IMG/VR virus record: IMGVR_UViG_3300032243_001028
Span: 1 to 64,000 of that record
Direction: 5' to 3' (one strand)
Origin: a virus
Taxonomy: Duplodnaviria; Caudoviricetes
DNA: 64,000 bases
In this document: positions 2,925-22,398 of the stretch, piece after piece
Position numbering within the stretch: position 1 is the first letter of the stretch
Layout of the letters: every line of letters starts with the position of its first letter
Notes under the pieces: model-generated
Databases searched by the model: none
What the model was told of the DNA's origin: nothing
What the model saw: only the letters and a program-made list of their open reading frames with translations
Position numbers and translations under genes: made by a program

Positions 2925-2963
2925 AAGTTATACAATAAAACCACAACGACGAAAGGACACACA

Positions 2964-3497
2964 ATTCACACTTCACAAATAATTCTTGTTGTAGCAAACA
3001 CTCACGAACAGGCAAGAGGAATAGTAGCCGACAAGTTCAGCGACGGAGAACCAAAGTGGTCTGACTGGAACGAAGTTCGATCTAATACAAGTATTAGTTT
3101 CGCTGGTCGCTGGGAAAACGACAATGTATTTGGAGAGAAAGCCGAGCTTGATACACTCCGGTATTCAGACGATCCTGAAACTGCTGAAAAGGCTATTTCT
3201 ATCTACCTAAAACACAGATACGCAGACATAGACAACTACCGACAAAAGCTCTATTCAGAGGGTAAAGAGGACATCTTGTTTAGCCACAACTACGACCACG
3301 AGGCAGAGTGGTCTGTCCCCGACAGTATGCCTCTTTATTACGCTAAGAAATTATCCGAACTTCTAAGTGGCGAGTGGGTATCTGATAGTGCTATTTACGA
3401 TCTGGAAATGTGGGATACCAACTTGTCGGAGTTCCGTAAGCGTATAGACGCTAACCCTGAAAATCAGTTCTTAGTTTTAGTAGATTTTCATTTCTAA
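2964..3497 (+). CDS. Hypothetical protein (177 aa) with probable ATT start
   Basis: Promoter at 2907 and SD GAAAGGA at 2951-2957; ATT at 2964 opens a stop-free frame (IHTSQIILVVAN...FAGRW...) continuous with ORF 3276..3497. Confidence 0.7.
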   Translation: MHTSQIILVVANTHEQARGIVADKFSDGEPKWSDWNEVRSNTSISFAGRWENDNVFGEKAELDTLRYSDDPETAEKAISIYLKHRYADIDNYRQKLYSEGKEDILFSHNYDHEAEWSVPDSMPLYYAKKLSELLSGEWVSDSAIYDLEMWDTNLSEFRKRIDANPENQFLVLVDFHF

Positions 3498-3584
3498 AAA
3501 ACTTTTATAAAAACTTGACAAACTTCTAACGAAAGACATAAACTTTCTAAGTAAGCCGAAATCAACCCTGAAAGGACACAAAAA

Positions 3585-4112
3585 ATGGCTGAAACAAACA
3601 ACGCAAACATCTCAATAGGTTATGCCCTATACACAGAGTTTCGTAAAGACGGACACACGCTACAAGTTATCTACACGCCTGAAAGTATGTCGGTAGATAA
3701 GAACGACAAAATTACCCCTATTTATGTTCCCTCTACTATTTGGCGTAGGCAAGTATCGGCATACTCACCTCGCAGACCTTGGCGAGCTTACTCGCAAGAG
3801 TGGAAAGTTGTAAATGAAAGAAAAGAAACTAGAACTGCTAATGGTGGTTCTGCCGAAGTCCTAGATACTGAACTAGCAACTAAGTATGCTATTGCTGGTC
3901 TTGTCTTTATGGACAGAACTTTTGCTAGTCTTGTTGATCAAAAGTGGGAACTATACAAAGAACCTATTGTTATTGAGTTCTCACAAGAGGACTTAGAGGA
4001 CACTAGGGACTGGAATACCCCTAATGCTCTTATCCGTAGAATTATGCGTTCTCGTAAAGCTCTCGGATTTCCTGACGAATTATTTGACCCGACCCCTACC
4101 CCTGCTGTATAG
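3585..4112 (+). CDS. Hypothetical protein
   Basis: Own promoter and GAAAGGA SD; 175 aa. Confidence 0.75.
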   Translation: MAETNNANISIGYALYTEFRKDGHTLQVIYTPESMSVDKNDKITPIYVPSTIWRRQVSAYSPRRPWRAYSQEWKVVNERKETRTANGGSAEVLDTELATKYAIAGLVFMDRTFASLVDQKWELYKEPIVIEFSQEDLEDTRDWNTPNALIRRIMRSRKALGFPDELFDPTPTPAV

Positions 4113-4145
4113 TCTTATTACAACCCTGAAAGGACACAAAACAAA

Positions 4146-5183
4146 ATGACTATAACTACAACTGCTACATTATCCGAAACTGAAAAAACAGCACTTGATC
4201 GTATAAACGATTTATCAAAGTTGTCGGCTAAGTTGCCTGAACTACTAATTGCTATCGGTTCGCAAGCTGTAAATGCTGACCAAGCCGAAATCATCAAAAA
4301 CAACCTATCCAAATCTGGTGGTCTTACTATGCGTGGGTCTGCTGAAACAACTAAAAAGAAAGTAAAAGAAAAAGTGGCTGAAACTCTATCTGCTGACGAG
4401 GCACTAGCAAGACCTAATGGCGAGCTTTATTACACTCGTAATTGGGGCGAACACAAAGATACTGCTGTTCTAAAACAACTCCGTTCTATCAACCAATTCG
4501 CACTATTTTATGGAAGTCCGGGAACAGGAAAAACTGCTCTTGTTGAGGCTACTTTTGGTGAGGAACTTCACACAGTTCTAGGTTCTGGCGATACCGAAGT
4601 TTCTGACTTGGTAGGTGGCTATGTCCAAACTCCTAGTGGCTCTTTTGAGTGGATAGACGGGGCATTAGTCAAATCTGCTGAACGAGGTGAGGTCTTGTTC
4701 ATTGACGAGATCGGACTTATTGACCCGAAAGTTCTATCAGTTGTCTATGGTCTAATGGACGGCAGACGAGAACTGCCAATTACTCAAAATCCCGAAAGAG
4801 GCACTATCAAAGCCAAAGACGGATTTTATGTTGTCGGGGCTACTAACCCTAATGCTGTTGGTGTTGTTCTATCAGAGGCGTTGCTCTCACGATTTACAGC
4901 ACAGGTGGAAATCACTACTGACTGGGTTCTTGCTAAGAAGTTGGGTGTCCCTGCCATTATCACAACAGCAAGTCAAAATCTAGCTAAGAAGTTTATGTCT
5001 GGCGAAGTTTCTTGGTGTCCTCAAATGCGAGAACTGCTTGCGTTTAGGGACTTGGAAAAGGTGTTCGGAACTAAGTGGGCTGTTAGCAACCTAATCTCGT
5101 CAGCACCCGAATTGGATAGACCTATCGTTGCCGAAGTTCTGTCTAGGGTTTATGGCGAGGAAGTAAAGACTGCCAAAATCTAG
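4146..5183 (+). CDS. MoxR/CbbQ/NirQ-family AAA+ ATPase
   Basis: Walker A GSPGTGKT, Walker B LFIDE, GATNP sensor, LSEALLSRF arginine finger. Confidence 0.9.
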   Translation: MTITTTATLSETEKTALDRINDLSKLSAKLPELLIAIGSQAVNADQAEIIKNNLSKSGGLTMRGSAETTKKKVKEKVAETLSADEALARPNGELYYTRNWGEHKDTAVLKQLRSINQFALFYGSPGTGKTALVEATFGEELHTVLGSGDTEVSDLVGGYVQTPSGSFEWIDGALVKSAERGEVLFIDEIGLIDPKVLSVVYGLMDGRRELPITQNPERGTIKAKDGFYVVGATNPNAVGVVLSEALLSRFTAQVEITTDWVLAKKLGVPAIITTASQNLAKKFMSGEVSWCPQMRELLAFRDLEKVFGTKWAVSNLISSAPELDRPIVAEVLSRVYGEEVKTAKI

Positions 5184-5208
5184 GTATTGTGTCCCCTAGC
5201 TTTTTGGC

Positions 5209-5242
5209 GAGGGTAGGTAGTTATAGTTGGCTACCTACCCTC
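5209..5242 (+). terminator. Stable hairpin/terminator
   Basis: GAGGGTAGGTAG...CTACCTACCCTC 12-bp stem. Confidence 0.6.
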
Positions 5243-5310
5243 AAATCAAAACTTGACAAAAACAAGATCAACTCTATAAAATCAAGATACGACAACTGAA
5301 AGGAAATCTT

Positions 5311-7155
5311 ATGTCGCACTTCGGAACTAACTCAAATGGTGTAAAGGCTACACCGAAAGAGTGGCTACCTATTGGAAAAACTATTGGCGAACTTGCTAAC
5401 AAGTGGTCTGGTAGAACTGACCTAATCGCTTATGTTGGAACAAAACTAGACGCACCTGTTCCTGCTCTATACAACCCTGTTTCATCAGAGATAGAGGTAA
5501 ATACTGAAATTGCTTTCGGCACTATTCCACCAAGTTTTATTCCTGACTTGGCAGACAAAGATAATCAGTATGAGTTTCCAAAGGCTATCGGTGCTATCTA
5601 CCACGAGGCTTGCCACGCTAAGTTCTCTCGCTGGTCATTGGAACAAAGTTCTAAGGACTTGACCCCTAGACAAAACAAAGCTCTCCACTTGTTAGAGGAA
5701 AGTCGCATTGAGGGATTTGGTGCTAAGGCTATTCCAACTAATCGTTATTTTCTAACTTCTTGTGCCTTAGAGATCGTGTTAGGCGAGTGTGATGTTGATA
5801 CGCTTTCCCTAATGTCTGAAACTAGGGCATTGGCTCACTTGGCAGGATTAGTCTTGGCAAGAATAGATGCCGGTATTCTTTACAGAAGTGATGTTGAGGG
5901 TATTGCTGAAATGCTAGAAACAAAACTAAGCATTGACTTTATTGAGAAGTTGAGAGAACTATGGCTAAAAGCACAAGCTCACGATAATCACCACAACGCT
6001 ACTGAACTTTACCCTCTTGCTATTGAGTGGGACAGACTTGTATCTGAACGAGCCAAAGAAAAGGGCGAGGACGATACTCAGGGTGGTTGCGAGTTCCCTA
6101 GTGGTGAGGGCGAGGGCGAGGGCGAGGGCGAGGGCGAGGGCGAGGGCAAGAGCAAGGGTCGCAGTAAGACCATTGAGGAAATGCTGAAAGAAGTTGAGAA
6201 CGCCAAAGAAAACGCTGAAATGACTGCTAACGACAAATTAGCCGATCAGCAAGAGGGCGAACACTCAAAAGAAAAAGCCAAGAGCAAGAGCAACGCCACA
6301 GAGGAAAAGAACAAGCACAAGGCAGTTGGTCAGCGTGTATTCGGTGAGAAAGAAACTGTTGGTTCTAATGGTTCAGGTTCTCGCTTAGAGGACACTCGCA
6401 AGCCTACTTCTGCCGAAAGAGCAAGTGCTGTTCTAATTGCTAAGTTGTTTATGAAAGCTAAATACAGGAACAGAACTGAAATCAAAATGAACTCGGTTAT
6501 GCCACAGGGCAGGTTGCGTTCTAGGGCTATGGTTCAGCGTGAGGCTCTTAGGTCTAAGGGCATTATGTCGCAGGTAGAAACTTGGCGACACAAAACTCGC
6601 AAGCACACCGAAACACCTAACTTGTCTATCGGGATTATGGTAGATGTTTCAGGTTCTATGGGTTCTGCTATGAAACCTATGGCAAGCACAGCTTGGATTT
6701 TGAGTGAGGCAGGTAGGCGTGTTCAGGCTAAGACCGCTATGGTCTATTTCGGTTCAGGCGTGTTTCCAACCTTGCGTGTAGGACAACACTTGGAAGATGT
6801 AAATGTCTATACAGCACCAGACGGAACTGAAAAGTTTGACTTAGGATTTCAGGCACTAAACGGACAACTTGATTTACTTGGTGGAACAAGTGCGAGGTTG
6901 CTAGTAATCGTTTCTGACGCTTGCTACACCAACGAGGAAATCAAAGCGTGTAAGTCTTGGCTACAAAGATGTAAGCAGTCAGGCGTAGGCGTTCTATGGA
7001 TAACTTACGATCAGGGTGTTTATGCCAACGCTGTTATTGAGGGTTCGGACACACAGCTTGTAAAAGTCAAGGGTGCGATTACCGAAGTTGCTGAAATTGT
7101 TGGTAAGGCAGGGGCAGAGGCTCTTACCAAAGCAGGTATGCGAATAGGGCGATAG
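5311..7155 (+). CDS. vWA (CobT-like) partner protein with N-terminal HExxH region
   Basis: YHEACHA...LEESRIE; (GE)n linker at about 6103-6147; MIDAS DVSGS; C-terminal VIVSD; adjacent to the MoxR AAA gene. Confidence 0.85.
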   Translation: MSHFGTNSNGVKATPKEWLPIGKTIGELANKWSGRTDLIAYVGTKLDAPVPALYNPVSSEIEVNTEIAFGTIPPSFIPDLADKDNQYEFPKAIGAIYHEACHAKFSRWSLEQSSKDLTPRQNKALHLLEESRIEGFGAKAIPTNRYFLTSCALEIVLGECDVDTLSLMSETRALAHLAGLVLARIDAGILYRSDVEGIAEMLETKLSIDFIEKLRELWLKAQAHDNHHNATELYPLAIEWDRLVSERAKEKGEDDTQGGCEFPSGEGEGEGEGEGEGEGKSKGRSKTIEEMLKEVENAKENAEMTANDKLADQQEGEHSKEKAKSKSNATEEKNKHKAVGQRVFGEKETVGSNGSGSRLEDTRKPTSAERASAVLIAKLFMKAKYRNRTEIKMNSVMPQGRLRSRAMVQREALRSKGIMSQVETWRHKTRKHTETPNLSIGIMVDVSGSMGSAMKPMASTAWILSEAGRRVQAKTAMVYFGSGVFPTLRVGQHLEDVNVYTAPDGTEKFDLGFQALNGQLDLLGGTSARLLVIVSDACYTNEEIKACKSWLQRCKQSGVGVLWITYDQGVYANAVIEGSDTQLVKVKGAITEVAEIVGKAGAEALTKAGMRIGR

Positions 7156-7304
7156 CACAATTTTCCGAGCAGGTCAAGTTTTTTATTTCCTTTCTCTTGA
7201 CCTGTTTGGAATACCAAAAAAAAAGATTTGGAAAAATACTTGACAAGCTCTTATTAGAGAAAGTAAAGTTGGAACTACAACCGAGAAATGAAAGGAACTA
7301 CCAA

Positions 7305-7631
7305 ATGTGCGATAACCCGACACACGATCACGATAACGAGGACGAGAGCTTATTGTCTGTTATCCAAAATGAAATCAACGAACCACAAGATGTAGCTGCG
7401 ACTGCTATCCAAATCTTTTGTGCGATTTCATCAGCATTAGTTCAGGCTGAAATGCCTAACCCTGCTATTTACAGAGCATTTGAGCCTATGAAACTTCTAG
7501 CTGAAAAGTTAGGTGATCAGGAACTAAACGACATAGTTATCACTTGCGAAATGGAACACCACGAAGTTATTACAAAAATGATTTCTAAAATGCGACACCC
7601 TGCTAGTAAGAGAAAGAAATGGGGTAAGTAA
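7305..7631 (+). CDS. Hypothetical protein
   Basis: Start reassigned to ATG 7305 after promoter 7240 and GAAAGGA SD. Confidence 0.65.
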   Translation: MCDNPTHDHDNEDESLLSVIQNEINEPQDVAATAIQIFCAISSALVQAEMPNPAIYRAFEPMKLLAEKLGDQELNDIVITCEMEHHEVITKMISKMRHPASKRKKWGK

Positions 7632-8434
7632 TGCCTAACTGGGTCTATAACACGCTAACTGTTTCAGGTAAGCCTGACGAGATAAAAGCCTTTACGGAAA
7701 AAGCTGATAAGTCAAGACCGAGAAGTGATGACGAGGGCAAGACCATTGAGTTAGAGGAAACTGACGGACTTTCTTTCTGGAACTTCATAGCACCACCCGA
7801 GGAAAAATACGATCTCTATTTCGCCATTTCTGACGGAACAGCAGACCAAACTTGGGGCTGGTATGGCTGGAACAGCGAGAACTGGGGAACTAAGTGGGAC
7901 GCTAATGATACGAGTATGTCCCCGTCCCCTGACGAGATAACCGAGGACACTGGGACAGTGATCTACTATTTCTCTACTGCTTGGAGTTATCCTGAACCTG
8001 TTGTTAGAGCTATGGCAGAACAACACCCGACACTACACTTTCACTTGCGTTCCGTTGAGGAACAAGGTTGGGGTGCTGAACTATCCGGAACTGACGGACA
8101 AATCTATACCGATACAACTTGGGACATACCGAGTAGTCATAAAGAGTGGGTTGATACCGACCAGGAGGGAAGTTGTGTTTGTGCCAACAACGACGACGAG
8201 GACGACTGGTATAAGGACTGTCCGAGAGATGATCAAGAGTTTATTGTTGTTATTCAAAAGTCTTACCGAGTAAGAACTAACACAGCAGAGAACGCTTACG
8301 AGCTTGCTATGGAACAGGGAAACGACCCTGACGAGCAAATGGAAGTTCTTGACGAAACGACAGCTTGGGTTCTTGACGATCAGGGAGTTAGACAATACCC
8401 GACCCTGAACAGCGAAGTTCCAAAGCTGGACTAA
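7631..8434 (+). CDS. DUF1281/YubB ferredoxin-like domain protein
   Basis: MPNWVYNTL, WYGW..ENWGTKW and FSTAWSYP signature motifs. Confidence 0.8.
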   Translation: MPNWVYNTLTVSGKPDEIKAFTEKADKSRPRSDDEGKTIELEETDGLSFWNFIAPPEEKYDLYFAISDGTADQTWGWYGWNSENWGTKWDANDTSMSPSPDEITEDTGTVIYYFSTAWSYPEPVVRAMAEQHPTLHFHLRSVEEQGWGAELSGTDGQIYTDTTWDIPSSHKEWVDTDQEGSCVCANNDDEDDWYKDCPRDDQEFIVVIQKSYRVRTNTAENAYELAMEQGNDPDEQMEVLDETTAWVLDDQGVRQYPTLNSEVPKLD

Positions 8435-8443
8435 AATAAACTT

Positions 8444-8550
8444 CGGTGAGTTTATGCTTTCTCTCACCGAGAACGGATAGTTATTTCCCCTCTACTATCC
8501 GTTCAGGGACTAGGTAATTTTTTGGTGGTTCTCTTTCTTACCTAGTCCCT
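8444..8550 (+). ncRNA. Three tandem hairpins with pyrimidine-rich loops (candidate sRNA)
   Basis: Stems CGGTGAG/CTCACCG, AACGGATAGT/ACTATCCGTT and AGGGACTAGGTAA/TTACCTAGTCCCT. Confidence 0.5.
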
Positions 8551-8619
8551 CTCTAAAACTTGACAAAACTTGACACAGGGGTATAGGCTAAACAAACCAC
8601 TAAACGAACAGGAAAAGAA

Positions 8620-8904
8620 ATGCTATTTAGACAAGCACTAGGACACATAATCGCTGAACACCGGCAAGACAAAAAGCTCACGCTACGCCAAACAGTAAAT
8701 AGAGGATCAGGGCGTATCTCGCTTACTTACCTATGGGAAATAGAAAAAGCTCGCAAAGAAGTCAGTAGTGAAATGCTGATAGAGGTTGCTCAATGTTTGG
8801 CTATTGAGCCTAGTGATCTGGTAATCAAAATCGGTATGGTTATGTGTGGTGGAGTTCCAAACTACTTGCCGATAGAACTTGACGAACAGCTTGTAAGTCT
8901 ATAA
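8620..8904 (+). CDS. XRE-family HTH regulator resembling actinobacterial ClgR
   Basis: LFRQALG..IAEHRQ....TLRQ......ISLTYLWEIEKARKEVSSEML. Confidence 0.75.
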   Translation: MLFRQALGHIIAEHRQDKKLTLRQTVNRGSGRISLTYLWEIEKARKEVSSEMLIEVAQCLAIEPSDLVIKIGMVMCGGVPNYLPIELDEQLVSL

Positions 8905-8935
8905 ACTGAACTTATCCAACTGAAAGGAAATCAAA

Positions 8936-9361
8936 ATGGATAAAGAAACTGAACCGCAAGCAACAGAAATGAAAATGTCCAACACTTGCTCTTGCGAGGT
9001 TGAGGACGAAACAACAGGCGAAATGACTTGGAGCAACGAATGTTTCGGTTGTTTTGAGGACGATAAGCAATACTTCACAGACGAGTTCCTAATGCCATAC
9101 CTGAACAGCAAGGGTTGGGACGAGGACACGATCATCAGAGTTGTTGGCGAGAAAATGAATTGGGACAACACTAGTGGTTGGACAGAAGTTCCTGCTAAGG
9201 ACTTACTAAAAGCTCTTGCCATAAATGGCGATTACACGCTAAGGGTTGAGATTACGCCTGAAAAGGAAATGGTAATTACCCGATCAAGCCACGATGAATA
9301 CGGAGCTAGTTTTAGATTTGAGTTATCACCCGAACAGGAATACAATTCTTATGAGGAATAA
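8936..9361 (+). CDS. Hypothetical protein
   Basis: GAAAGGA SD; 141 aa, acidic. Confidence 0.7.
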   Translation: MDKETEPQATEMKMSNTCSCEVEDETTGEMTWSNECFGCFEDDKQYFTDEFLMPYLNSKGWDEDTIIRVVGEKMNWDNTSGWTEVPAKDLLKALAINGDYTLRVEITPEKEMVITRSSHDEYGASFRFELSPEQEYNSYEE

Positions 9362-9690
9362 CTAAATAAACTTTTGCTAGGCATACCGAAACCTAAACCT
9401 AGAAGTTTTAGTTTTAGGTGGAGAACCAGAGGTGTCCGTTTAGGAACAATGTTGGTGGTATGGGGATTACTACCCTGAAAACCTAGTGAAATCCGACCAA
9501 TGTATGTCGCTAAACTACGCTTGTTCCTTAGCAAGAGAAAAAACTAAGGGTCTTGACTTCCAGACCTAAAAATTGTAGCCCTATTGGAGTTGATGGTAAT
9601 AACTATCCGGTTTTCTTTTTTTGTATTTTATTCTCTCTCCCTAAAAGAAAAAAATGCTAAACCTGAGTAAGTTGATAAACTGCTCACCTA
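9362..9690 (+). ncRNA. Candidate structured non-coding RNA ending in an anti-SD hairpin and a pseudoknot
   Basis: About 350-nt gap with no credible + strand ORF in a gene-dense region; multiple short stems. Confidence 0.4.
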
Positions 9691-9712
9691 AACTTCTTAG
9701 AAAAGGACAACT

Positions 9713-10012
9713 ATGAAATACGATCTCTACGCAAATGAGGACAACAACTTTATCCCTGATGTAGTCATTACCAAAGTTGAGGGAGCTTGGCTAGTAGATG
9801 CTGGCAGGGAAATCAGTTTTGAGTGGCGAGGAACTGAACAATGGTGTCAAATGGAAATTGACGAGGGCTTTTGGCTAATAACCGAAACTAAATACACTCC
9901 GGATTTTGAGGAGTGGCTTGACGAGAACCTAGACCAATACGACAGCTTAGAGTTTATGTTTGACCTAAACGATCTAGTGCCGAACCACTACAAGATAGAG
10001 CTTGATAAGTGA
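9713..10012 (+). CDS. Hypothetical acidic protein
   Basis: AAAGGA SD; ORF track. Confidence 0.65.
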   Translation: MKYDLYANEDNNFIPDVVITKVEGAWLVDAGREISFEWRGTEQWCQMEIDEGFWLITETKYTPDFEEWLDENLDQYDSLEFMFDLNDLVPNHYKIELDK

Positions 10013-10210
10013 TCAATTGCGAAACCTGTAAAGGCAAACCCCTAGTTTGTAAAATGTATGCTCACGCTAATCGGTGGTATTACTTCTGGTGGTGGCGTGG
10101 AGTTGATAATTTGTTTTGGAAAATCCACGAAAAGTTTTGTAAAGAAACTTGACTTGTATTTGATTAGCTGGTAATTTGGAAACATAACCCGAATGAAAGG
10201 AAAATAAAAA

Positions 10211-10729: not shown

Positions 10730-10824
10730 TGAAACCACTAAACTAAGACCATAGGCAAACGCCTAAATACCTAAGCAAGTATCTAAACTGCTTACCAAAA
10801 AACCACCGATAACAAAGGAATAAA

Positions 10825-11232: not shown

Positions 11233-11246
11233 GCAACCGAAAAGAA

Positions 11247-11280
11247 TTCGCCAAACTAAAAACTTGGCGAATTTTTTTTT
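11247..11280 (+). terminator. Intrinsic terminator
   Basis: TTCGCCAA/TTGGCGAA stem plus T run. Confidence 0.75.
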
Positions 11281-11347
11281 GCCGACACGCTTGACTTACC
11301 GATACCGATAAGGAACAATAGAACTATCCCGAAACTAAGGAGAAAAA

Positions 11348-11731
11348 ATGGGAGAAATAAAGCAAGCCCTAGTTATCAAGACAGCAGGGGACATACAGGT
11401 TGTAAGCTTTACTGCCGAAACCGAATACGAAGTTATCAAGAAAGCCGTTGGTGGTTATTTAGAGATCGTTAGATTATCGCCAACTATGATTATGTGGACA
11501 AACGAGGAAGGTAAACTAGACAGACTACCTTACAACCACAGAGCAACTGCTATTTGGAATTATTATTTTGGAGCTACGGACATAATCGTTGGTGATGTAA
11601 TCCTTACAGGTGGAACTGATACTGACGGAAACTGCTTAGGACTAAGCTTGGCAGACGGAAACAAAATTCAGGTTTTAGTATCGGCTACTAGACTAGAAAA
11701 AGCCGAGATGAAAAAAGGGGAAACCAAGTGA
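11348..11731 (+). CDS. DUF3846 domain protein
   Basis: AVGGYLEIV...NEEGKL..LPYN.RAT...DIIVGDVILTG. Confidence 0.85.
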   Translation: MGEIKQALVIKTAGDIQVVSFTAETEYEVIKKAVGGYLEIVRLSPTMIMWTNEEGKLDRLPYNHRATAIWNYYFGATDIIVGDVILTGGTDTDGNCLGLSLADGNKIQVLVSATRLEKAEMKKGETK

Positions 11732-11997
11732 AAGTTGATTACGAACTATCAAGAATAGCGATCTGGAAAGTAGAGAACGCTAAGACAAAGTTGGAACTTA
11801 CTTATTCTGCCGAGTATGGAGCAGAGATTAGAGCAAGCCTGACTTACCGAACACTAAACGGAGCTTGGATAAAAACAAAAAAGTATTACAACCGAGCCGA
11901 GTGTCTAATGGATTTCGCTACCCTAACCAACAATAAAAAACTGATCAGGGTAATAGAAAGAACAGAGCAGTATCAAAGCTATTTAGAAAATAGTTAG
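11728..11997 (+). CDS. Hypothetical protein
   Basis: GTGA coupling with the upstream gene. Confidence 0.6.
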   Translation: MKVDYELSRIAIWKVENAKTKLELTYSAEYGAEIRASLTYRTLNGAWIKTKKYYNRAECLMDFATLTNNKKLIRVIERTEQYQSYLENS

Positions 11998-12111
11998 ACA
12001 CACCGAAAAAATAAATGAAAATAAACTTGACTTAGATTAGATAAAAGACTAAGTTAGAAGTATTGGAAGTTCCAATAGCCGAAATCGGCACAGAACTAAG
12101 GAAGTAAATAA

Positions 12112-12414
12112 ATGGAAAATCAAGAACCACAAGAAGTAAAAATCACAAGCAAAAAAGCAAAAGAAGCTTATGCCTTGCTAAAAACTATCAAGCTCCAAAT
12201 GGCAGAACTAGAAACACAAAAGGCACAGGCTACCGAAATCTTGGCACAGGCTCTAAATGGTGCCAAGCGTGGAGTTGTTGCTGGACAGGGTTCGTATGTT
12301 TTACAGGCAGGAAAGAACACGAGTTTTGATCGTGCCTTGATGAAAGAGAAGTTCCCTGTTGCGTTTGACGAGTGCCTAAGAACAACCGAATACGAATACA
12401 TAAAACTCGTATAG
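12112..12414 (+). CDS. Hypothetical coiled-coil protein
   Basis: Promoter at 12027, AAGGA SD. Confidence 0.7.
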   Translation: MENQEPQEVKITSKKAKEAYALLKTIKLQMAELETQKAQATEILAQALNGAKRGVVAGQGSYVLQAGKNTSFDRALMKEKFPVAFDECLRTTEYEYIKLV

Positions 12415-12426
12415 CAAGAAGTAGTG

Positions 12427-12475
12427 ATCCCCTAATAAACCGAACCGAGAGTTTGGATTAGGGGATTTACTTTTT
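12427..12475 (+). terminator. Intrinsic terminator
   Basis: ATCCCCTAAT...ATTAGGGGAT stem plus T-rich tail. Confidence 0.65.
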
Positions 12476-12525
12476 ACCAAGAAAAGTGGTAAGGTAGAAC
12501 TACCACCGAAAATGAAAGTAGAAAA

Positions 12526-12708
12526 ATGACCAAGTATGTAAAACACCTAACCAATGATGAACTACTAGAACGCCTAGCAGACGAGTTAGTTAGAACTCAC
12601 CGAGAGACCGCCATAGACCTAGGCTATTGGGAAACAGCAAGAGAAGTTGTAGAACGCTTTTACAGCGTGGAAGTAAAACTAACTATCAAGAAAGCAAAGA
12701 AAAAATGA
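12526..12708 (+). CDS. Hypothetical protein
   Basis: ORF track; purine-rich leader. Confidence 0.6.
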   Translation: MTKYVKHLTNDELLERLADELVRTHRETAIDLGYWETAREVVERFYSVEVKLTIKKAKKK

Positions 12709-13013
12709 CCGAACAGGAAAAGCCGAAAGGCGATTTTAGTGATCCAAAAAGTTTCTATTTCAATGACTACCTAAGCAACCACATAGGACACAAGCTTGAA
12801 GTTGTTGAGTATTGTTGTGGTGTGTGTGGAAAGACCACCGACTTTATGCTCCGTTGTTTCCAAGATGACATAGATGATACTTGTTCCAACGACCCTGCTG
12901 GTATTGCTAGGGAATGGGTGAAACCGCATTGCGAGTGTAATCACAGCCCTTGGACAGCAGACAAGATTTCTAATCTAAAAGAAAACTTGACAGAAAGTAA
13001 TCAAGCCGAGTAA
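12705..13013 (+). CDS. Cys-rich hypothetical protein
   Basis: Start reassigned to ATG 12705 (ATGA coupling). Confidence 0.6.
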   Translation: MTEQEKPKGDFSDPKSFYFNDYLSNHIGHKLEVVEYCCGVCGKTTDFMLRCFQDDIDDTCSNDPAGIAREWVKPHCECNHSPWTADKISNLKENLTESNQAE

Positions 13014-13046
13014 AGTGGAACTACCACCAAACATTAGGAGCAGAAA

Positions 13047-13295
13047 ATGGAAATGAACGAAGTTGAGCAGAAAGCAGTAAAGGCTATCTACAACGACTAC
13101 TACTCTAAGGAGATTAGTGCCGAACAAGCTTTACACGATCTAGAAATGCTTATCAACAATAATGAAGTTGTTGAGAGATGTCCGTTGTGTAAGGCACAGA
13201 TAGACGAGAATAATCCACTCATTGACGCTGAACGCTATTCTGTAAGCGACAAAATCGGTTATTGCGATAACTGCTATGACCCGACACCAGACTAA
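13047..13295 (+). CDS. Hypothetical protein with C-terminal CxxC..CxxC module (paralog of 18026..18223)
   Basis: CPLC....NPLIDAERY...DKIGYCDNCYDPTP. Confidence 0.7.
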   Translation: MEMNEVEQKAVKAIYNDYYSKEISAEQALHDLEMLINNNEVVERCPLCKAQIDENNPLIDAERYSVSDKIGYCDNCYDPTPD

Positions 13296-13513
13296 AAACA
13301 AGCTTGGCAGTTAGTCCCCCCTAACACTACTGCCAACGAGCAAGGGTTTCTCTCATTTCTCCCTTGCTCCACACCTAAGCAAGTGTATAAAAGGCTTATT
13401 TTTATTTAGGGAACATACCGGAAAATAAGCTTGACTAATCTTAGGTAGTTGTGGTTAGATTAGTTAGCACCAAAAAATAAAAAACGATCGACTAAAAATG
13501 AAAGGCAACAAAA

Positions 13514-13759
13514 ATGGAAGATTTTACCGACTTCACACCAAAGAACTTTTACTTTACAGCAGACGGAAACTATGGCGGTGATGAGATTATTCTTGTTGAT
13601 GTTAGCAAGCTTGCCGATAATCACTTACTAGACAGCGTTGAGAACCTAACTAGCGATAACTCTATGTTGAGTTTCGTAAAGTGGTTTATTGCTAATGACC
13701 ACAAGGAAGTTATTACCGCCATTGGTGAGCCTTGTGAAACTTGTAATGAGAACGCTTAG
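13514..13759 (+). CDS. Hypothetical protein
   Basis: Promoter at 13431, GAAAGG SD; YFTADGNYG motif. Confidence 0.7.
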   Translation: MEDFTDFTPKNFYFTADGNYGGDEIILVDVSKLADNHLLDSVENLTSDNSMLSFVKWFIANDHKEVITAIGEPCETCNENA

Positions 13760-13841
13760 ATAATCTTGCGAAAACCCCTAATCTGTGTTTAGATTAGATA
13801 GCACCAAAAAAATAAACCACCGAAAAAAAGGAAAAACAAAA

Positions 13842-14198
13842 ATGGGCGATAGAGCAACTATCCACATCACAAGCGAGCAGTTTGATACAGCCATAGAACT
13901 TTATGGGCATTGGTCAGGCACAGACAACGCTAAGGCAGTTGGTAATGTATTGGACAGAACGGGCAGAATAGGCGACCCGTCTTATCTAACAGCACAGCTA
14001 TTCTATGAATACGCAAAGTTAGGAAACTACAACGGAGAGTTGAGTTTCGGCATTAGAGCAATAAAGGCAGAGCCTAGCGACACTTTTGACGATAATCCTG
14101 TCGTTGTTGTAAATGCCGATACAGGTTCAGTTCAGTATGACGGAGAAACTTATACTGCCGAGCAGTTTGCGTTAGCGTATGCCGATAAGGTAAGTTAG
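13842..14198 (+). CDS. Phage hypothetical protein (MGDRA...LYGHWSG type)
   Basis: Start reassigned to ATG 13842 after AAAGGA. Confidence 0.75.
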   Translation: MGDRATIHITSEQFDTAIELYGHWSGTDNAKAVGNVLDRTGRIGDPSYLTAQLFYEYAKLGNYNGELSFGIRAIKAEPSDTFDDNPVVVVNADTGSVQYDGETYTAEQFALAYADKVS

Positions 14199-14265
14199 AA
14201 CTACACCGATAAAGGTGGTAATCCAAAAGGGTTATCACCTTTATCACTAACAAGGGAAAATAAAA

Positions 14266-14514
14266 ATGAACGAGCAACTAGAACAACTACAACAGAGATT
14301 ACTAGATCTAAAATCTAGACGAGCAGGGTTATTATCTCTATTGGAAGGCATTACCGAGCAGGTAAAGACAACACCGAATAAAGACTTAGCGTTTCTAGAT
14401 AGTTTGGTATCACAGCTAGAACAGGCAGCAATAAAGTCTAATGAACTAGGGGAGATGATTACCGAAACTAGATTAGACATTGCTAAGTTTAGAAAAGAGT
14501 TTGGCTTAGACTAG
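14266..14514 (+). CDS. Coiled-coil hypothetical protein
   Basis: AAGGGA SD; heptad leucines. Confidence 0.65.
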   Translation: MNEQLEQLQQRLLDLKSRRAGLLSLLEGITEQVKTTPNKDLAFLDSLVSQLEQAAIKSNELGEMITETRLDIAKFRKEFGLD

Positions 14515-14556
14515 CCAAGCTGGTAAAGTTAGAACACAACCAAAAAAGGAGAACTA

Positions 14557-14841
14557 ATGAAAACACTTGCCGAGTTCAAAAGAGTATTAGCCAAGCCTGA
14601 TACAACCCTAACGATTATCAAATGCCTAGACATAAAGACAGGTGAGGAAAAACCTCATAAGTTTCTAGATCAGGTTAGAACGATAGGGAAACTACAAACT
14701 AACAGCGTTGCCCTAAAAGATAGCACCGGCAAACTTTCGTGGTTAGACATAGATAAAGCTCGCAACTGGACATTTACCGATAATGTTGCGACCTATGCTG
14801 ATGAATACATTGCCATTGTTTATTTAGTAAAACACGCCTAA
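14557..14841 (+). CDS. Hypothetical protein
   Basis: AAGGAG SD. Confidence 0.7.
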   Translation: MKTLAEFKRVLAKPDTTLTIIKCLDIKTGEEKPHKFLDQVRTIGKLQTNSVALKDSTGKLSWLDIDKARNWTFTDNVATYADEYIAIVYLVKHA

Positions 14842-14927
14842 AAATAACTTGACTATTCCCGAACAGGTTTAGTAAAGTGAGAATAGTTAGGTAAAGTGCC
14901 TAACCTAAATGAGAGTAAGGAACTCAA

Positions 14928-15401
14928 ATGAACACAACACTTATCGCAGTAATGCCATTGGTTTATCTGGCTATCGTTGCTATTCCCCTAATCACCATAG
15001 ACATTAGAGAACACCGACTACCAAACAAGATTATTCTGCCGTTTATTGCTTTGGGTTTGGTTACGGACTTAGTTGCTAGTTTCGCTGGTGGAGAGTGGTG
15101 GAGATTAGGATTAGCTTTGGCAGTTGCTTTTGGTATCGGTATTGCTGGTATGGTTGCTAACTACTTTGACCTTATCGGTATGGGGGACATCAAACTATTC
15201 TTTGGTAGTTCCCTAGTAATCGGCTGGTTTGTCTGGTGGTTGCCGTTGGTATTGGTTGCCGTAACGCTCATTGTTGGTATTCTCGTAACGCTTTATCTGT
15301 TGGTGTTCCGTAAGGTTAGTGCTGGAACTAGCGTTCCACTAGGACCTTATGCCATTGTTCTATCCCTAGTTATTGGAACTTACGGAGTTATGAGTATCTA
15401 A
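14928..15401 (+). CDS. Type IV prepilin peptidase (peptidase A24, GxGD aspartyl protease)
   Basis: IDIREHRLPNKI, GMGDIKL, VPLGPY; multiple transmembrane helices. Confidence 0.85.
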   Translation: MNTTLIAVMPLVYLAIVAIPLITIDIREHRLPNKIILPFIALGLVTDLVASFAGGEWWRLGLALAVAFGIGIAGMVANYFDLIGMGDIKLFFGSSLVIGWFVWWLPLVLVAVTLIVGILVTLYLLVFRKVSAGTSVPLGPYAIVLSLVIGTYGVMSI

Positions 15402-15579
15402 GGAAGTAAGCCGAACCCCTTAGCCTAAATGGTTAGGGGGTTTAGCTTTGCCCGAAAAAAGACGATCTGGTGAAACCCGACACGCTAAAAAATAGTTGCC
15501 GATAAACTTGACTATTTCTATACGGAGATAGTAATCTTGGAGTAGTTAGGTAAATCGCCTAACAGATACGGAGATAAAA

Positions 15580-15792
15580 ATGAGTGGTTATGACATTGGC
15601 GGTGGCTATGACGGCTGGAAAACTGCTACCCCTTGGGATAATGAACGAGAGATTACTGTTTCGTTTGAGTGTGGCAAGTGTGAAGTTGAGAACGACAGCA
15701 TAGAAGTTGTAGTTGGTGGCAGGTCTGGAGATGTAGATGTTGAGTGTGCCGAGTGTGGTGAGAACAACAGCGTTAGTTTCGGTGATGACTAA
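15580..15792 (+). CDS. Zn-ribbon protein (paralog of 18501..18695)
   Basis: VSFECGKCEVEN...ECAECGENN. Confidence 0.7.
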   Translation: MSGYDIGGGYDGWKTATPWDNEREITVSFECGKCEVENDSIEVVVGGRSGDVDVECAECGENNSVSFGDD

Positions 15793-15900
15793 ATAGACTT
15801 CACTAGGCAAAAATCAAAACTGAGTAATCAAAACTGAGAGCCTAGTGAAACACCTGAGCAAGTGTATAAAAGGCTCACCTAAATCTTTAGAAAGGCAAAA

Positions 15901-16077
15901 GTGAAAGACAGAAAATCTAAGATCGCCTGTTGGTCTTGTGGCAAGCTTACGGAAGTAAAATACATTGGTGAGAACACACATAAACAAGAGTGCCGAGAGT
16001 GTAAAGAGTGGCGAGCAGAACGCTATGCTGTATTACAGGGGAACACCGATAAAGAGAGATTAGATAATGCTGAATAA
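15901..16077 (+). CDS. Small CxxC protein (58 aa, not in ORF track)
   Basis: GAAAGG SD, GTG start, CWSC...CREC. Confidence 0.5.
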   Translation: MKDRKSKIACWSCGKLTEVKYIGENTHKQECRECKEWRAERYAVLQGNTDKERLDNAE

Positions 16078-16269
16078 AATTGCTAGAAGTCTTAGAAGTA
16101 TTAGCGGAGTGCTAATGAATACAGGACACCGACTTAGTTGGTATGCGAGCAAGCTTGATACCAAGTCAAGAGATCGTAGAAACGCTAAAAAATAAAATGC
16201 GGATAAACTTGACAAAGTTTCCAAACAGCAACTAAACTGAATACATCAAGACGAAAAGAGGTGAAAAAA

Positions 16270-16497
16270 ATGGGAAAAAAAGTTGATACTTGGACTTGGT
16301 TCGTTGCTCAATACGAGCAACAGGGATACAAATCTCTAAACCAATTCGCTATCGCAACAGGCTTACAGAAGTCTAGCCTTAGCCGATACTTTCATAATCA
16401 ACGACACATTCCGTCAAATACTTTGGCGGTGCTATGTCGTGAGCTGGAAGTTTCTCCAACTGAATTACTGATCGCAATTGGCGAGAAAGTAAAGTAA
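16270..16497 (+). CDS. XRE/Cro-like HTH protein
   Basis: SLNQFAIATGLQKSSLSRYF....PS..TL..LC..LEVSP. Confidence 0.8.
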   Translation: MGKKVDTWTWFVAQYEQQGYKSLNQFAIATGLQKSSLSRYFHNQRHIPSNTLAVLCRELEVSPTELLIAIGEKVK

Positions 16498-16562
16498 GTG
16501 CCGAACCTGAGCAAGTTCTAAAAAGGCTCAACTAAAAACTAATAGAAAGTTGCGGTGAAGTT

Positions 16563-16754
16563 GTGAAAACATTTTTGGCAGTATTAGGTTTATGGTCTGC
16601 TGGTTGCGGTATCTATTATGGATTTATAGCCGACAATAATCAGCGAGCATTTGAGATTGGATTTACTTTGGCATTTCTGCTATTGTTTGTAGCGTTGCTA
16701 CTAGCAGTTGCCGAGCTTCCTAGATTTATTAGAAAGCGTAATAGGCGTAAATAG
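16563..16754 (+). CDS. Small 2-TM membrane protein
   Basis: Two hydrophobic stretches and a basic C-terminus. Confidence 0.55.
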   Translation: MKTFLAVLGLWSAGCGIYYGFIADNNQRAFEIGFTLAFLLLFVALLLAVAELPRFIRKRNRRK

Positions 16755-16901
16755 ACTTGGGAGAGGGTTTCTTTCATTTCCCCTCTGCCGAACACACCTG
16801 AACAAGTGTCTAAAAGGTTCATTTATTTTTTAGAGATCGGGAATTTTTTATGCCGATTAGAAGTTATTATTTATGTAATGACTAACTACAAAGGAGACAA
16901 A

Positions 16902-17060
16902 ATGAAAAGAACTAAATTCACACCAGAACGCCTTGCTGAGCTGGACAGACTAGACAGATTTAGAACCTATGACTTACTTTATAGGGCTATGCTTGCCGGT
17001 CTAATCCCCTTTGAGCCGAACCTAAGACTAAAGCGTATGGTCAGGGTAAAGAAGTCTTAG
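16902..17060 (+). CDS. Small basic hypothetical protein
   Basis: AAGGAG SD before ATG 16902. Confidence 0.55.
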   Translation: MKRTKFTPERLAELDRLDRFRTYDLLYRAMLAGLIPFEPNLRLKRMVRVKKS

Positions 17061-17171
17061 AGAGATTTCTAGAGATCCAAAAAATAAATACCGACACGCT
17101 TGCTTATTTCCATTTGGAGATGCTAAAGTTGAAGTAGTTAGGTGAAGTGCCTAGCAGTTACGGAGTAAAAA

Positions 17172-17450
17172 ATGGAAAAGAAAGAATACCGAGTTTATTG
17201 GTGGATTGAGATTTACCCTTTCGGCTATGACAGAGATTGCGAACTCAGGAACATTGAACTAATGGGAACTGTTTTTGCCGAAGATGAAGATGATGCTATG
17301 GATCAGGTTAGAGAAGATAACGAGATTATTGGTGATGATTTCATTGGTTACCCTGACCCTGATTATGTTGATAGTCACCCCGACATTGAGATAGTTTGGA
17401 CTGGCGATATGTCTGCCGAGTTAGTTTTGGACTTGACTAAGCAGGACTAA
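17172..17450 (+). CDS. Acidic hypothetical protein
   Basis: Own promoter-hairpin cassette, GGAG SD. Confidence 0.7.
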   Translation: MEKKEYRVYWWIEIYPFGYDRDCELRNIELMGTVFAEDEDDAMDQVREDNEIIGDDFIGYPDPDYVDSHPDIEIVWTGDMSAELVLDLTKQD

Positions 17451-17465
17451 ACCCCGAGAGTAGAA

Positions 17466-17500
17466 AGCCCTTAGCCGAAAGGCTAGGGGTTTTTTATTTT
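17466..17500 (+). terminator. Intrinsic terminator
   Basis: CCCTTAGCC-GAAA-GGCTAGGGG plus T run. Confidence 0.8.
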
Positions 17501-17595
17501 TGGACACGCCAGAATAATCTTGACTAAATGCCGATAAGTGATCTAGGATTTTAGTAGTTAGGTAATCTCCTAATCAAAATAAAGAAAGTAGAAAA

Positions 17596-17874
17596 ATGAA
17601 ACTACAAGTTACGAAGTCAAGCCCAGTCTGGCAAAAGATTATTGCCGATAATAAAGAGTGGTTTTCTAAATCAACACTGGAGTTTTTCAAATCAACTATT
17701 TTTTGGTCAAGCCTGAAAGAAACTGAACAGGGTCTAAAGTTTGTAACTAGCGAATGGAACTACCAGCAGGACACTAAGGTTTTTACTATCAGGCTAGTCA
17801 CCGATACAGGCATAGAAACTATTAGTGAATACGGACAATACCCTAGCCTTGTAGAAGCCTTACGAGCCTTATAG
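17596..17874 (+). CDS. Hypothetical protein
   Basis: Cassette gene; WFSKSTLEFFKS..FVTSE motif. Confidence 0.7.
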   Translation: MKLQVTKSSPVWQKIIADNKEWFSKSTLEFFKSTIFWSSLKETEQGLKFVTSEWNYQQDTKVFTIRLVTDTGIETISEYGQYPSLVEALRAL

Positions 17875-18025
17875 AGATCGTGAAACTGAACCCTTGCCGA
17901 AGCTCAGGCAGGGGTTTAGTTTTATCTAGACACGCCAAAATAAAATACTTAGAAACTTGACGGAATAAAACTTGCGGTGATAGAGTTTTATTAGTTAGGC
18001 AAGTTGCCGAACAGAAATGAGAAAA

Positions 18026-18223
18026 ATGGAAAACTTTCTAGACATCAACAAGGTTGCTAAAATTGTAGGACTGCCAGCAACTAACGAAGTCTGCCCTAGT
18101 TGTGATGAACTTATTACGGCTACTAATCCCCTGATAGATACTGAACGCTATACGGCTAATGATAAGACTGGCTATTGCGATAGTTGTTATGACCCGACCC
18201 CTTACTATCCCAAGATAGATTAG
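18026..18223 (+). CDS. CxxC..CxxC protein (paralog of 13047..13295)
   Basis: CPSC....NPLIDTERY...DKTGYCDSCYDPTP. Confidence 0.7.
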   Translation: MENFLDINKVAKIVGLPATNEVCPSCDELITATNPLIDTERYTANDKTGYCDSCYDPTPYYPKID

Positions 18224-18231
18224 GGGGGATT

Positions 18232-18396
18232 ATGTTTATAGAGAAACCAGCTGACGCTGAACAAGCGGAACAATTCGCATTAGGACTAATCCAAGAACCA
18301 AAAGATTACGGAACATTAGTTTTAGTTCCTTGTAAGCACAAGGTATTCTGCCGAACTCACGGAAGTTTCTGGATCAGGAAAAGATTTAGAAAATAG
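18232..18396 (+). CDS. Small hypothetical protein (54 aa, not in ORF track)
   Basis: GGGGGA SD; MFIEKPADAEQ...RFRK. Confidence 0.45.
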   Translation: MFIEKPADAEQAEQFALGLIQEPKDYGTLVLVPCKHKVFCRTHGSFWIRKRFRK

Positions 18397-18500
18397 AAAC
18401 ACGCAAAAAAAAATTATTTATTTATTTGACTATTTCTATACGGAGATGCTAAAGTTGGATTAGTTAGGCAAACGACCTAACGGAAAATGGAGATGTAAAG

Positions 18501-18695
18501 ATGTGGGAATACGGAGATGATGAAGTTTCTGTTGTTGTGTCTTTCACTTGCGACAAATGCGAGTATGAAAATGAAGACAGCGAGCAAACAATAGGCAGGG
18601 GTGAAGGTCAGCACATAGTAATCTGTGATGAGTGTGATACCGAGAACACGATCATCATTGAGCCACCTGAGCCACCTGAGCCTTGGGAAGACTAA
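18501..18695 (+). CDS. Zn-ribbon protein (paralog of 15580..15792)
   Basis: VSFTCDKCEYEN...ICDECDTEN. Confidence 0.7.
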   Translation: MWEYGDDEVSVVVSFTCDKCEYENEDSEQTIGRGEGQHIVICDECDTENTIIIEPPEPPEPWED

Positions 18696-18818
18696 TCCTA
18701 AACACCTGAGCAAGTGTCTAAACTGCTTATTTTTATTTGCTACATACTTGACTATTTCCAGCTGGAACTGGTAAAGTTTTATTAGTTAGGAAAAATCACC
18801 TAGCGGAAATGAGAAAAA

Positions 18819-18998
18819 ATGTTTTACTTACAGACAACATCAACCCTAGTAAGACTTTCTAATGGAGAAACTTTTACTCAATGTGAAATCTGCGGTAGAT
18901 GTTATGAGAACGAACACTGGGACAGAACCAAGATAACCAGGAACGACTGGGCTTGGACTTGCCACCACAGCGACCAGGATACCGGAATACTAGAATAA
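18819..18998 (+). CDS. Small Cys/His protein (59 aa, not in ORF track)
   Basis: Follows promoter-hairpin at 18748; MFYLQTT...CEICGRC...TGILE. Confidence 0.55.
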   Translation: MFYLQTTSTLVRLSNGETFTQCEICGRCYENEHWDRTKITRNDWAWTCHHSDQDTGILE

Positions 18999-19962: not shown

Positions 19963-19969
19963 ACCAGGG

Positions 19970-21919: not shown

Positions 21920-21920
21920 C

Positions 21921-22369: not shown

Positions 22370-22398
22370 TAGAGATCTAATCTTACAAAGGAGGCCTT

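Follow-up and report, generated by a model that had tools for sequence, protein, structure and literature searches.

A split zone depleted of many short DNA words among the putative early genes of a freshwater tailed phage

What could rid a long stretch of a viral genome of nearly all its short palindromes while the structural genes keep theirs? The question is raised by IMG/VR record IMGVR_UViG_3300032243_001028, a tailed phage (Duplodnaviria; Caudoviricetes) of which the first 64,000 nucleotides are the window analyzed here. The source contig is 135,096 bp long, and its ends overlap by 123 bp, which indicates a circular assembly. An earlier note, made by eye from the letters of the window, had described an almost palindrome-free region at 2930-18930, mirrored by reverse cassettes at 24400-26480, and had ascribed it to restriction of DNA that enters or is exposed early, with staged injection or terminal repeats as the implication. 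The depletion proves to be extreme, to be independent of coding constraints and to extend to many further words. In the reading that we favor, and that we think rather probable, the depleted DNA would be first-exposed early DNA of the kind known from T5 and T7, purged by host restriction.

Two zones depleted of many short words

The depletion was measured with ten tetramers, ACGT, ATAT, CATG, CGCG, GCGC, GGCC, GTAC, TGCA, TTAA and TCGA, and delimits two zones.

2842..19253, plus strand: zone 1, 16.4 kb of small putative early genes with 6 sites of the ten-word set and about 15 further words also purged
24336..26504, minus strand: zone 2, four small cassettes with the promoter, leader hairpin and terminator of zone 1, and 1 banned site

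Together the zones span 18.6 kb and contain 7 ten-word sites, versus approximately 557 expected at the density of the rest of the genome (about 30 per kb) and approximately 488 expected from a second-order Markov model within the zones. The local depletion that the earlier note anticipated in Markov-corrected tetramer counts is present in the zones, and in the rest of the genome the observed/expected ratio is about 1. Among all 256 tetramers, 10 of the 11 most depleted are palindromes. The largest site-free gaps (7235, 3919, 2306, 1847, 1411 and 762 bp) all lie in the zones; the next anywhere is 259 bp, and no comparable gap exists elsewhere in the 135,096 bp. Within 2930-18930, ACGT, CATG, CGCG, GCGC, TGCA and TTAA do not occur, ATAT, GGCC and GTAC occur once each and TCGA three times; at 24400-26480 the only occurrence of any of the ten words is one TCGA. 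The isolated sites named earlier were located exactly (GTAC at 10437, GGCC at 11182, ATAT at 17407), as was the CCWGG at 8161, the sole one in 2842-18936. Missing from that account were the TCGA sites at 3077, 10312, 13488 and 25743.

Codon and amino-acid composition do not produce this pattern. The 13,302 coding bases of the zones were subjected to 500 synonymous-codon shuffles with every protein kept. Shuffles with zone codon usage gave 311.6±13.7 sites (minimum 275 in the 500 shuffles) and shuffles with late-gene codon usage gave 310.7±15.5, versus 4 observed. The non-coding DNA of the zones contains 3 sites in 5,284 bases. The depletion is independent of coding constraints, and short palindromes are under-represented beyond what base, codon and amino-acid composition would give. 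Selection extends to the protein sequence itself. For nine dipeptides, YM, CT, WP, HM, HV, MH, MQ, NM and DM, every possible codon pair creates a banned word. They are found once in 4,655 zone residues, compared with 38 expected from zone amino-acid frequencies or 24.5 by extrapolation from the remaining proteins; the selection is powerful enough to rule some dipeptides out.

The selection also appears to be ongoing, as judged from comparison with the related genome G001, which differs from the window at 1,789 of 15,433 aligned zone positions (11.6%; approximately 87% identity). When that number of substitutions is placed at random, 263±14 banned words result, and the G001 zone actually has 4. 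Placing the observed substitutions one at a time, by which 161 of them "create" a site, is misleading, and the actual G001 count was used instead.

Further words were assessed with shuffles already obeying the ten-word ban, so that indirect effects were removed. Among interrupted and degenerate palindromes, GANTC is absent (0 versus 26±4), and GCNGC (2 versus 14), GGNCC (1 versus 10), CCWGG (3 versus 13), TTSAA (7 versus 43), GTNAC (11 versus 41), ACNGT (13 versus 40) and GTNNAC (3 versus 31) are rare. CTNNAG occurs 4 times versus 61±6 in the constrained shuffles, and 9 times versus 131 expected from the rest of the genome, with all sixteen NN variants low. Asymmetric words, with orientations summed, are similarly affected: GTCTC/GAGAC (1 versus 25.5), CCATC/GATGG (2 versus 24), CCTTC/GAAGG (3 versus 28), GGATG/CATCC (1 versus 17), GAAGA/TCTTC (8 versus 37) and CCGC (10 versus 38). 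At least 25 words are purged in the zones, namely the ten tetramers and about 15 others. Many of them presumably correspond to recognition sequences of known Type II and Type IIS enzymes (HinfI, FokI, MboII and others). We know of no characterized enzyme for CTNNAG, the depletion of which may point to an uncharacterized one. A small tier of avoidance is genome-wide: TCATGA (0 versus 13.9) and GCATGC (0 versus 8.3) are absent also from the 116.5 kb outside the zones.

Not every short palindrome is affected. The earlier note had listed GATC, CTAG and AGCT as tolerated, which holds fully for CTAG and nearly for GATC (36 versus 44.8±5.0); AGCT is about half-depleted, as are AATT, TATA and CCGG. 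CTAG, CTNAG, AGNCT and CCTC are undepleted, the first three at or above expectation. For GGATG, GAAGA, GTCTC, CCATC and CCTTC, both orientations are low when counted apart, which indicates recognition of double-stranded DNA. Together with the spared palindromes, the asymmetric words argue for specific double-stranded DNA words, and against RNA-level effects or a general avoidance of dyad symmetry.

These observations bear on the possibility of a cause unrelated to defense, such as biased mutation, codon or amino-acid composition, the avoidance of hairpins or cruciforms, or a recent import of foreign DNA. Such causes have in their favor that most of the banned words are palindromic, and nothing further. 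They are confronted with the sparing of CTAG, CTNAG and AGNCT, the purging of asymmetric words in both orientations, the exclusion of codon and protein composition, with late-gene codon usage giving the same expectation, and the persistence of the zone through 11.6% substitution and in distant relatives with other word sets. We consider a cause of this kind extremely improbable; on the strength of the shuffles, the spared palindromes and the relatives, we reject composition, imported DNA and any general avoidance of palindromes or hairpins.

Conserved position and turnover of word lists among relatives

The large terminase gene terL (22998-24395) encodes a T4-type enzyme and identifies a tailed phage. 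Its product shares 77% identity with the terminase of the metagenomic "Actinomycetia phage DSL-LC01", approximately 62% with those of Microbacterium phages such as A3Wally, and approximately 46-48% with those of Gordonia and Arthrobacter phages; 445 TerL relatives were found in the viral contig collection. All 20 of the 20 sequencing runs containing the phage, used as assembled contigs rather than reads, are freshwater, lake or unspecified metagenomes. No position at which many molecules start or stop was reported for these runs, and none of them is listed as RNA. With a WhiB family match in the phage genome, the TerL relatives and the origins of the runs point to lake actinobacteria as the host group. 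Megablast comparison of 3000-19000 and 27000-47000 with the phage collection gave no match.

In the closest contigs (TerL 92-100% identical), both zones and the unpurged island between them are found as in the window, and both zone boundaries are conserved in position among the relatives. The left edge lies 1-4 kb upstream of an AAA ATPase gene, even where that ATPase is only 54-66% identical, and where depletion crosses terL it stops sharply approximately 2.5-3 kb past the start of the gene. For the 18 relatives with both flanks available, the depleted palindromes number 78 on the early side only, 41 on both sides and 4 on the structural side only, a tally that includes some near-duplicate loci. 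Other relatives have low counts over the whole stretch that was fetched, and 3 of the 18 are without any depletion.

The banned words themselves are lineage-specific and often arranged in two tiers. Locus L044 lacks AGCT, GATC, GCGC, CGCG, GGCC and CCGG on both sides, and ACGT, ATAT, CATG, GTAC, TGCA and TTAA on the early side only. L032 retains TCGA and GANTC, and L046 has GAAGA 0 times versus 41. Many relatives ban GATC and AGCT throughout the genome; the window phage retains them. The 135-kb genome G004 has ACGT, AGCT and GATC at or near 0 throughout, and its zone upstream of terL also loses AATT, ATAT and GTAC. DSL-LC01 itself (OQ999401.1; loci L001-L003; 129 kb, 54% G+C) has no zone; ATAT and TTAA are both 0 throughout the genome, TATA and AATT being present, and the string "palindrom" is absent from the text of the paper describing that phage. 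In G003 the zone is contiguous over approximately 26.5 kb, including terL, and the extents of the words are nested: in the reverse-complemented genome at 25.3-52.9 kb, ATAT, TTAA, CATG, ACGT and GAAGA are absent over approximately 26 kb, TGCA over 20 kb and GANTC over 14 kb. This nesting may reflect mosaic history or graded exposure.

Conservation of position together with turnover of specificity is the outcome expected of an arms race between phage and host restriction systems, and the differing banned sets of the relatives would be the signature of such a race. The claim of restriction selection on early-exposed DNA made in the earlier note is thereby strengthened, by the double-stranded DNA type of the words, by a match with early-type promoters described below and by the relatives' differing sets at the same map position.

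The relatives also bear on a different source of selection, whereby the words would be avoided to escape the phage's own early (or induced) nucleases that destroy host DNA. This idea has been raised for the T5 A1 protein and first-step-transfer DNA in a preprint on the two-step injection of T5 (10.1101/866236), and an HNH family match exists elsewhere in the genome. One phage would need more than 20 specificities, however; relatives with near-identical gene content ban different sets; and no nuclease family is found among the zone proteins save for one weak RecE-like PHROG match. Self-avoidance of this kind is quite improbable.

Putative early cassettes and the order of exposure

The gene map provides the context for asking why these two zones were purged. 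Small plus-strand genes run from approximately 130.6 kb over the contig junction up to approximately 19.9 kb, then come a short block with terL, four small minus-strand genes, and a plus-strand virion block at 26.4-93 kb; replication and nucleotide-metabolism genes are last. A sigma-70-like pattern (TTGACn, 16-18 nucleotides, TAnnnT) occurs 42 times in the genome, and 21 of these are in the zones, which represent 14% of its length.

2907..19156, plus strand: 18 promoter-like sites, all in gene orientation
24793..25712, minus strand: 3 promoter-like sites (starts 24822, 25249 and 25712), in gene orientation
14850..19195, plus strand: cassettes with the leader hairpin AGTTAGG..CCTAAC, which is found also in all four zone 2 cassettes

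None of the 42 lies in the island at 19254-24335. The genes at 14.9-19.2 kb, towards the distal end of zone 1, share with the four zone 2 genes a cassette plan of promoter, leader hairpin, ribosome-binding site, small open reading frame (ORF) and terminator, and from these sequence features both zones appear to consist of early-gene cassettes transcribed from host-type promoters. The hairpin, AGTTAGG(N6-8)CCTAAC, stands between promoter and ribosome-binding site in at least 11 cassettes (14.9-19.2 and 24.7-26.4 kb) and could be an RNA stabilizer or an operator.

Between the zones lies the following.

19254..24335: unpurged island of normal site density with late-type genes
19970-20662, minus strand: FkbM-type methyltransferase, in the island
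21084-21659: NlpC/P60 protein, in the island
22399-22929: peptidoglycan-binding protein, in the island
22998-24395: TerL, in the island
18937..20054: CCWGG-dense element, 29 sites in 1.1 kb, at the junction of zone 1 and the island

The CCWGG-dense element has 26 sites per kb versus a genome mean of 1.29 per kb, a density about 20 times higher, and is the sole such cluster in the genome. It spans coding and non-coding DNA. Only the closest clade (L004-L012 and G001; 10-17 per 500 bp) has the cluster at this junction, and neither G003 nor G004 has it. By its position the element is a candidate stop signal; it might also mark a boundary, serve in packaging or act as a decoy.

In the reading we favor, the zones would be the early cassettes of a virulent-type freshwater actinophage, transcribed by host RNA polymerase, and their DNA would be reachable by host Type II and Type IIS endonucleases before the counter-measures of the phage work. 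The recognition word of any enzyme circulating in the host population would then be removed by purifying selection. The remaining 116 kb would retain the words owing to later protection, whether by early products, by a co-injected ArdC-type virion protein or by later entry. By analogy with T5 and BF23, the zones would most likely belong to a long direct terminal repeat and reach the cell ahead of the remaining DNA. If that repeat spans 2.8-26.4 kb, both physical ends would open with inward-facing early cassettes and the island would be duplicated, and the island may be exempt because its intact second copy arrives later.

Terminal repeats, as implied by the earlier note, have gained two indirect supports. 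The cultured phage A3Wally, a linear record, has a direct terminal repeat of which 12,725 bp were verified at 100% identity; alignment up to the end of the record gives an implied length of 15,503 bp, with 41 small plus-strand genes. The second is contig depth. In the run that contains the entire stretch (X1) the mean depth is 42 over 6805-25369 and 37-40 for the unique pieces of zone 2, versus 23.7 for a 52.6-kb contig starting at 26378, so that the zone region has approximately 1.7-fold the depth of the structural block, contig depth not being the same as copy number. A second run (X2) has a similar drop (7-10 versus 3-5), and a third is less clear. These depths hint that the zone region is present twice.

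Assemblies of the relatives, moreover, break at the right boundary. The contigs of 47 of 80 relatives end 1.4-5.5 kb downstream of the TerL start, versus 11 of 80 in the mirror window upstream, and for loci of at least 9 kb the figures are 33 of 65 and 3 of 65; repeated cassettes at this place are another possible cause. In run X11 a single contig coming from zone 2 leaves the phage sequence at 26546, approximately 40 bp beyond the depletion boundary; what follows we take to be transposase library adapter. As a recurrent fragment end, the stop at 26546 is at most a faint hint.

Several observations weigh against the favored reading. The island at 19254-24335 lies unpurged between the zones, which a simple model in which DNA that enters first is purged does not predict; the layout of zone, island and zone recurs in a second, more divergent clade (L018-L030). 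In other relatives (G003, L013-17, L032 and L044) terL is purged as well. The cultured relatives Sixama and A3Wally have no purged zone. The left end of A3Wally adjoins the homolog of ORF 133610-134752, and by synteny with A3Wally the physical left end would be near 133.5 kb, 4.4 kb upstream of the zone and in unpurged DNA. A strain mixture sharing the early region could mimic the depth step. Neither ArdA, Ocr nor any other known anti-restriction family is among the Pfam and PHROG matches of the 36 zone proteins. The idea that zone 1 is the exact counterpart of the A3Wally repeat was rejected, since no zone gene has a homolog there; the only genes with homologs in that repeat lie upstream of the zone, at 133610-134752 and 26-739.

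Alternatively, exposure might be set by early transcription rather than by the order of entry. The whole genome would enter at once, shielded for example by co-injected proteins such as the ArdC-type polyvalent protein, and only the units opened by host RNA polymerase would become accessible; or only early units would have to stay intact, late genes in the repeat having a later second copy. Depletion does follow the early cassettes on either side of the exempt late island, a second clade has the same layout, the ArdC module described below is probably injected, and the purged terL of G003 is immediately preceded by early-type promoters. On the other hand, we know of no case in which injected phage DNA is shielded in particular regions only, ORF 19196-19543 carries 3 sites despite its early-type promoter, and the sharp, position-conserved outer boundaries coincide with the depth step, as a physical landmark would. 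Exposure through transcription is in our opinion unlikely, though much less so than nuclease self-avoidance.

A further form of the favored reading is a terminal repeat of approximately 24 kb in a widespread lake actinophage family, in which the inward-facing outer early units would be purged of every restriction word that circulates among the hosts and the inner late genes exempt through an intact second copy that arrives once counter-defense is established. This form is tentative, and we would sooner expect it to fail than to hold. If it is true, the two-tier word list of a lineage would record the host enzymes that its anti-restriction functions neutralize, as well as the order of DNA entry; the lists would predict uncharacterized specificities such as CTNNAG, and the CCWGG array would serve its clade as a boundary or stop element.

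Candidate counter-measures, known parallels and zone proteins

A candidate for the protection of the unpurged DNA is encoded in the virion block.

30846..40550, plus strand: polyvalent protein of 3,234 amino acids with RNase_T, UvrD helicase and ArdC module

The ArdC module is matched by Pfam ArdcN (4e-16) and MPTase-PolyVal (7e-28), and residues 7-284 align to solved ArdC structures (6i89/6sna, E = 1e-28). It combines the ArdC-N domain with a zincin peptidase whose HExxH motif is kept as HELVH. From the place of its gene in the virion block, the protein is probably packaged and co-injected. Polyvalent virion proteins have been proposed, in the sections of Iyer et al. 2017 used here (PMC5512222), to travel in the virion, to be injected and to guard the incoming DNA, with the ArdC-N domain shielding that DNA from Type II enzymes. 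The present protein resembles them as a giant multidomain protein of the virion block with ArdC-N, zincin peptidase, helicase and nuclease. It differs in that ArdC-N, in those same sections (PMC5512222), is mostly N-terminal and in conjugative elements, whereas here it is near the C terminus of a phage protein.

Methylation offers another route to regional avoidance. The zone would lack sites in order to stay free of methyl marks carried by the rest of the genome, and the early DNA would escape Type IV restriction. Actinobacteria often restrict methylated DNA, and one gene of methyltransferase fold, the FkbM type, lies in the island. However, no DNA methyltransferase or base-modification family was found in the genes scanned, judged for 41 other genes from the stronger 25 of their 31 Pfam families. 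FkbM-type enzymes are not known to be DNA methylases, a related strain has 108 other letters in place of the FkbM-type gene, and late DNA, if methylated, would still be a Type IV target. Escape from methylation is highly improbable.

Restriction avoidance in leading DNA is a known principle. For T5 and BF23, the accounts drawn on describe Type I and II restriction-modification (R-M) systems as acting only on sites in the first-injected region, the first-step-transfer DNA being the long terminal repeat (PMC10644984), with small pre-early genes entering first and a repeat-rich stop element near the inner end (PMC10644984, 10.1101/866236). The window phage shares with the Tequintavirus pattern a lack of R-M-type sites specifically in the early-type region, 16-24 kb of small early-type genes, a hint of two copies, a repeat of 15.5 kb in the cultured A3Wally and a CCWGG-dense element at the inner edge of zone 1. 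It belongs to an unrelated family (an actinophage with T4-type TerL), its sequence signature is much more pronounced (at least 25 words, ten of them tetramers), and a late island lies inside. None of the T5 pre-early genes (A1, A2, dmp) was named in the general Pfam and PHROG tallies of the 36 zone proteins, in which no search was aimed at them.

T7 enters its host by a transcription-assisted mechanism, and the many inward-facing, strong host-type promoters seen here would suit such entry. Unlike T7, the window phage has no Ocr-like protein among the matches of its 36 zone proteins. In the T7-like Murciavirus, a Type I motif was reported to have an effect only within the early region that is injected first, itself variable (PMC12455610); that is a single motif shown experimentally, whereas the many Type II- and Type IIS-like words here are read from sequence.

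Genes for single-stranded DNA-binding protein (ssb) are found in the leading regions of conjugative plasmids. The zone likewise encodes an SSB family protein and the phage carries an ArdC module, although plasmid DNA is transferred single-stranded through a type IV secretion system, and here a tailed phage has ArdC within a giant protein of the virion block. The Murciavirus study describes the plasmid leading region as entering first, poor in R-M targets and rich in anti-defense genes, and earlier avoidance surveys as having ignored the location of sites (PMC12455610).

Purifying selection against short palindromes is likewise seen in phages that avoid sites genome-wide, the relatives DSL-LC01 and G004 among them. 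In the window phage, 4- and 5-bp words are instead banned regionally and in layers, with only TCATGA and GCATGC lacking genome-wide. No published regional purge of this breadth, nor one for this phage family, was found in a search that reached little of subscription journals and supplements. This phage extends the known principle of leading-region avoidance to a new, uncultured family. Its bans are layered in two tiers, an exempt late island splits its zone, and the CCWGG-dense boundary is specific to its clade. The restriction of first-injected DNA would be readable here without experiment, which could allow early or first-entering DNA, and probably genome ends, to be located in metagenomic phages from sequence. 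The word lists of each lineage could likewise serve as lists of restriction specificities in hard-to-culture lake actinobacteria, separating words to be avoided everywhere from those neutralized after early expression, and the approximately 35 small early proteins are a likely source of new anti-restriction functions.

The zone features with a family match or a distinctive composition are as follows.

4146..5183, plus strand: AAA_5 (MoxR/CobS-like) ATPase, a positional marker with the zone left edge 1.3 kb upstream
5311..7155, plus strand: CobT-like protein of 614 amino acids, to which a phrog_249 match is assigned through the DSL-LC01 homolog annotated "cobalamin biosynthesis protein"
7631..8434, plus strand: very acidic protein of 267 amino acids (isoelectric point 4.08) with DUF1281_C
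10825..11232, plus strand: SSB family protein
11348..11731, plus strand: DUF3846 protein
25790..26130: non-coding tandem repeats CCTGAGCC / CCTGTGAGCC / GCATTAGCCCTAACC between zone 2 cassettes

The phrog_249 match is to one zone protein, and its placement on 5311..7155 is an assignment by homolog. The acidic protein encoded at 7631-8434 is, from its composition, a candidate DNA mimic. Other zone proteins include a prepilin-peptidase-like membrane protein, helix-turn-helix regulators and zinc ribbons, and several are small and very acidic. Acidic zone proteins are encoded at 7631-8434, 8936-9361, 9713-10012, 13514-13759 and 17172-17450. Three very acidic ones, compared by sequence search with solved structures, gave 0 hits, one annexin at E = 0.04 and 0 hits, respectively.

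Cobalamin-related genes are spread out over the genome, the CobS-like AAA ATPase and CobT-like genes lying in the early zone (4146-7155) and those for cobalamin adenosyltransferase and B12-dependent ribonucleotide reductase outside it (contig 99-117 kb). The virion block contains two giant ORFs, at 30846-40550 (3,234 amino acids) and 40986-59741 (6,251 amino acids), the second with only RNase_T and GNAT matches and mostly without family. Paralogy between zone 1 and zone 2, sought as a sign of cassette shuffling, was not found, the sole paralog pairs being 13047/18017 and 2172/2479.

The non-coding repeats between zone 2 cassettes (CCTGAGCC / CCTGTGAGCC / CCCTGCCTTG) occur at 25790-26130, 24880-24920 and 25320-25345, and similar low-complexity DNA (GCCCTGCCTAG / CCTAGG / poly-G) lies just within the inner boundary of the A3Wally repeat (L117, 14960-15130). 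Contigs from other lakes skip whole cassettes, of 347 and 464 bp (window 13477-13825 and 25229-25694), and in one contig, with the joint at 19961-20750, the FkbM-type methyltransferase gene is swapped for the 108 other letters; thus early cassettes and the FkbM-type gene come and go among close strains.

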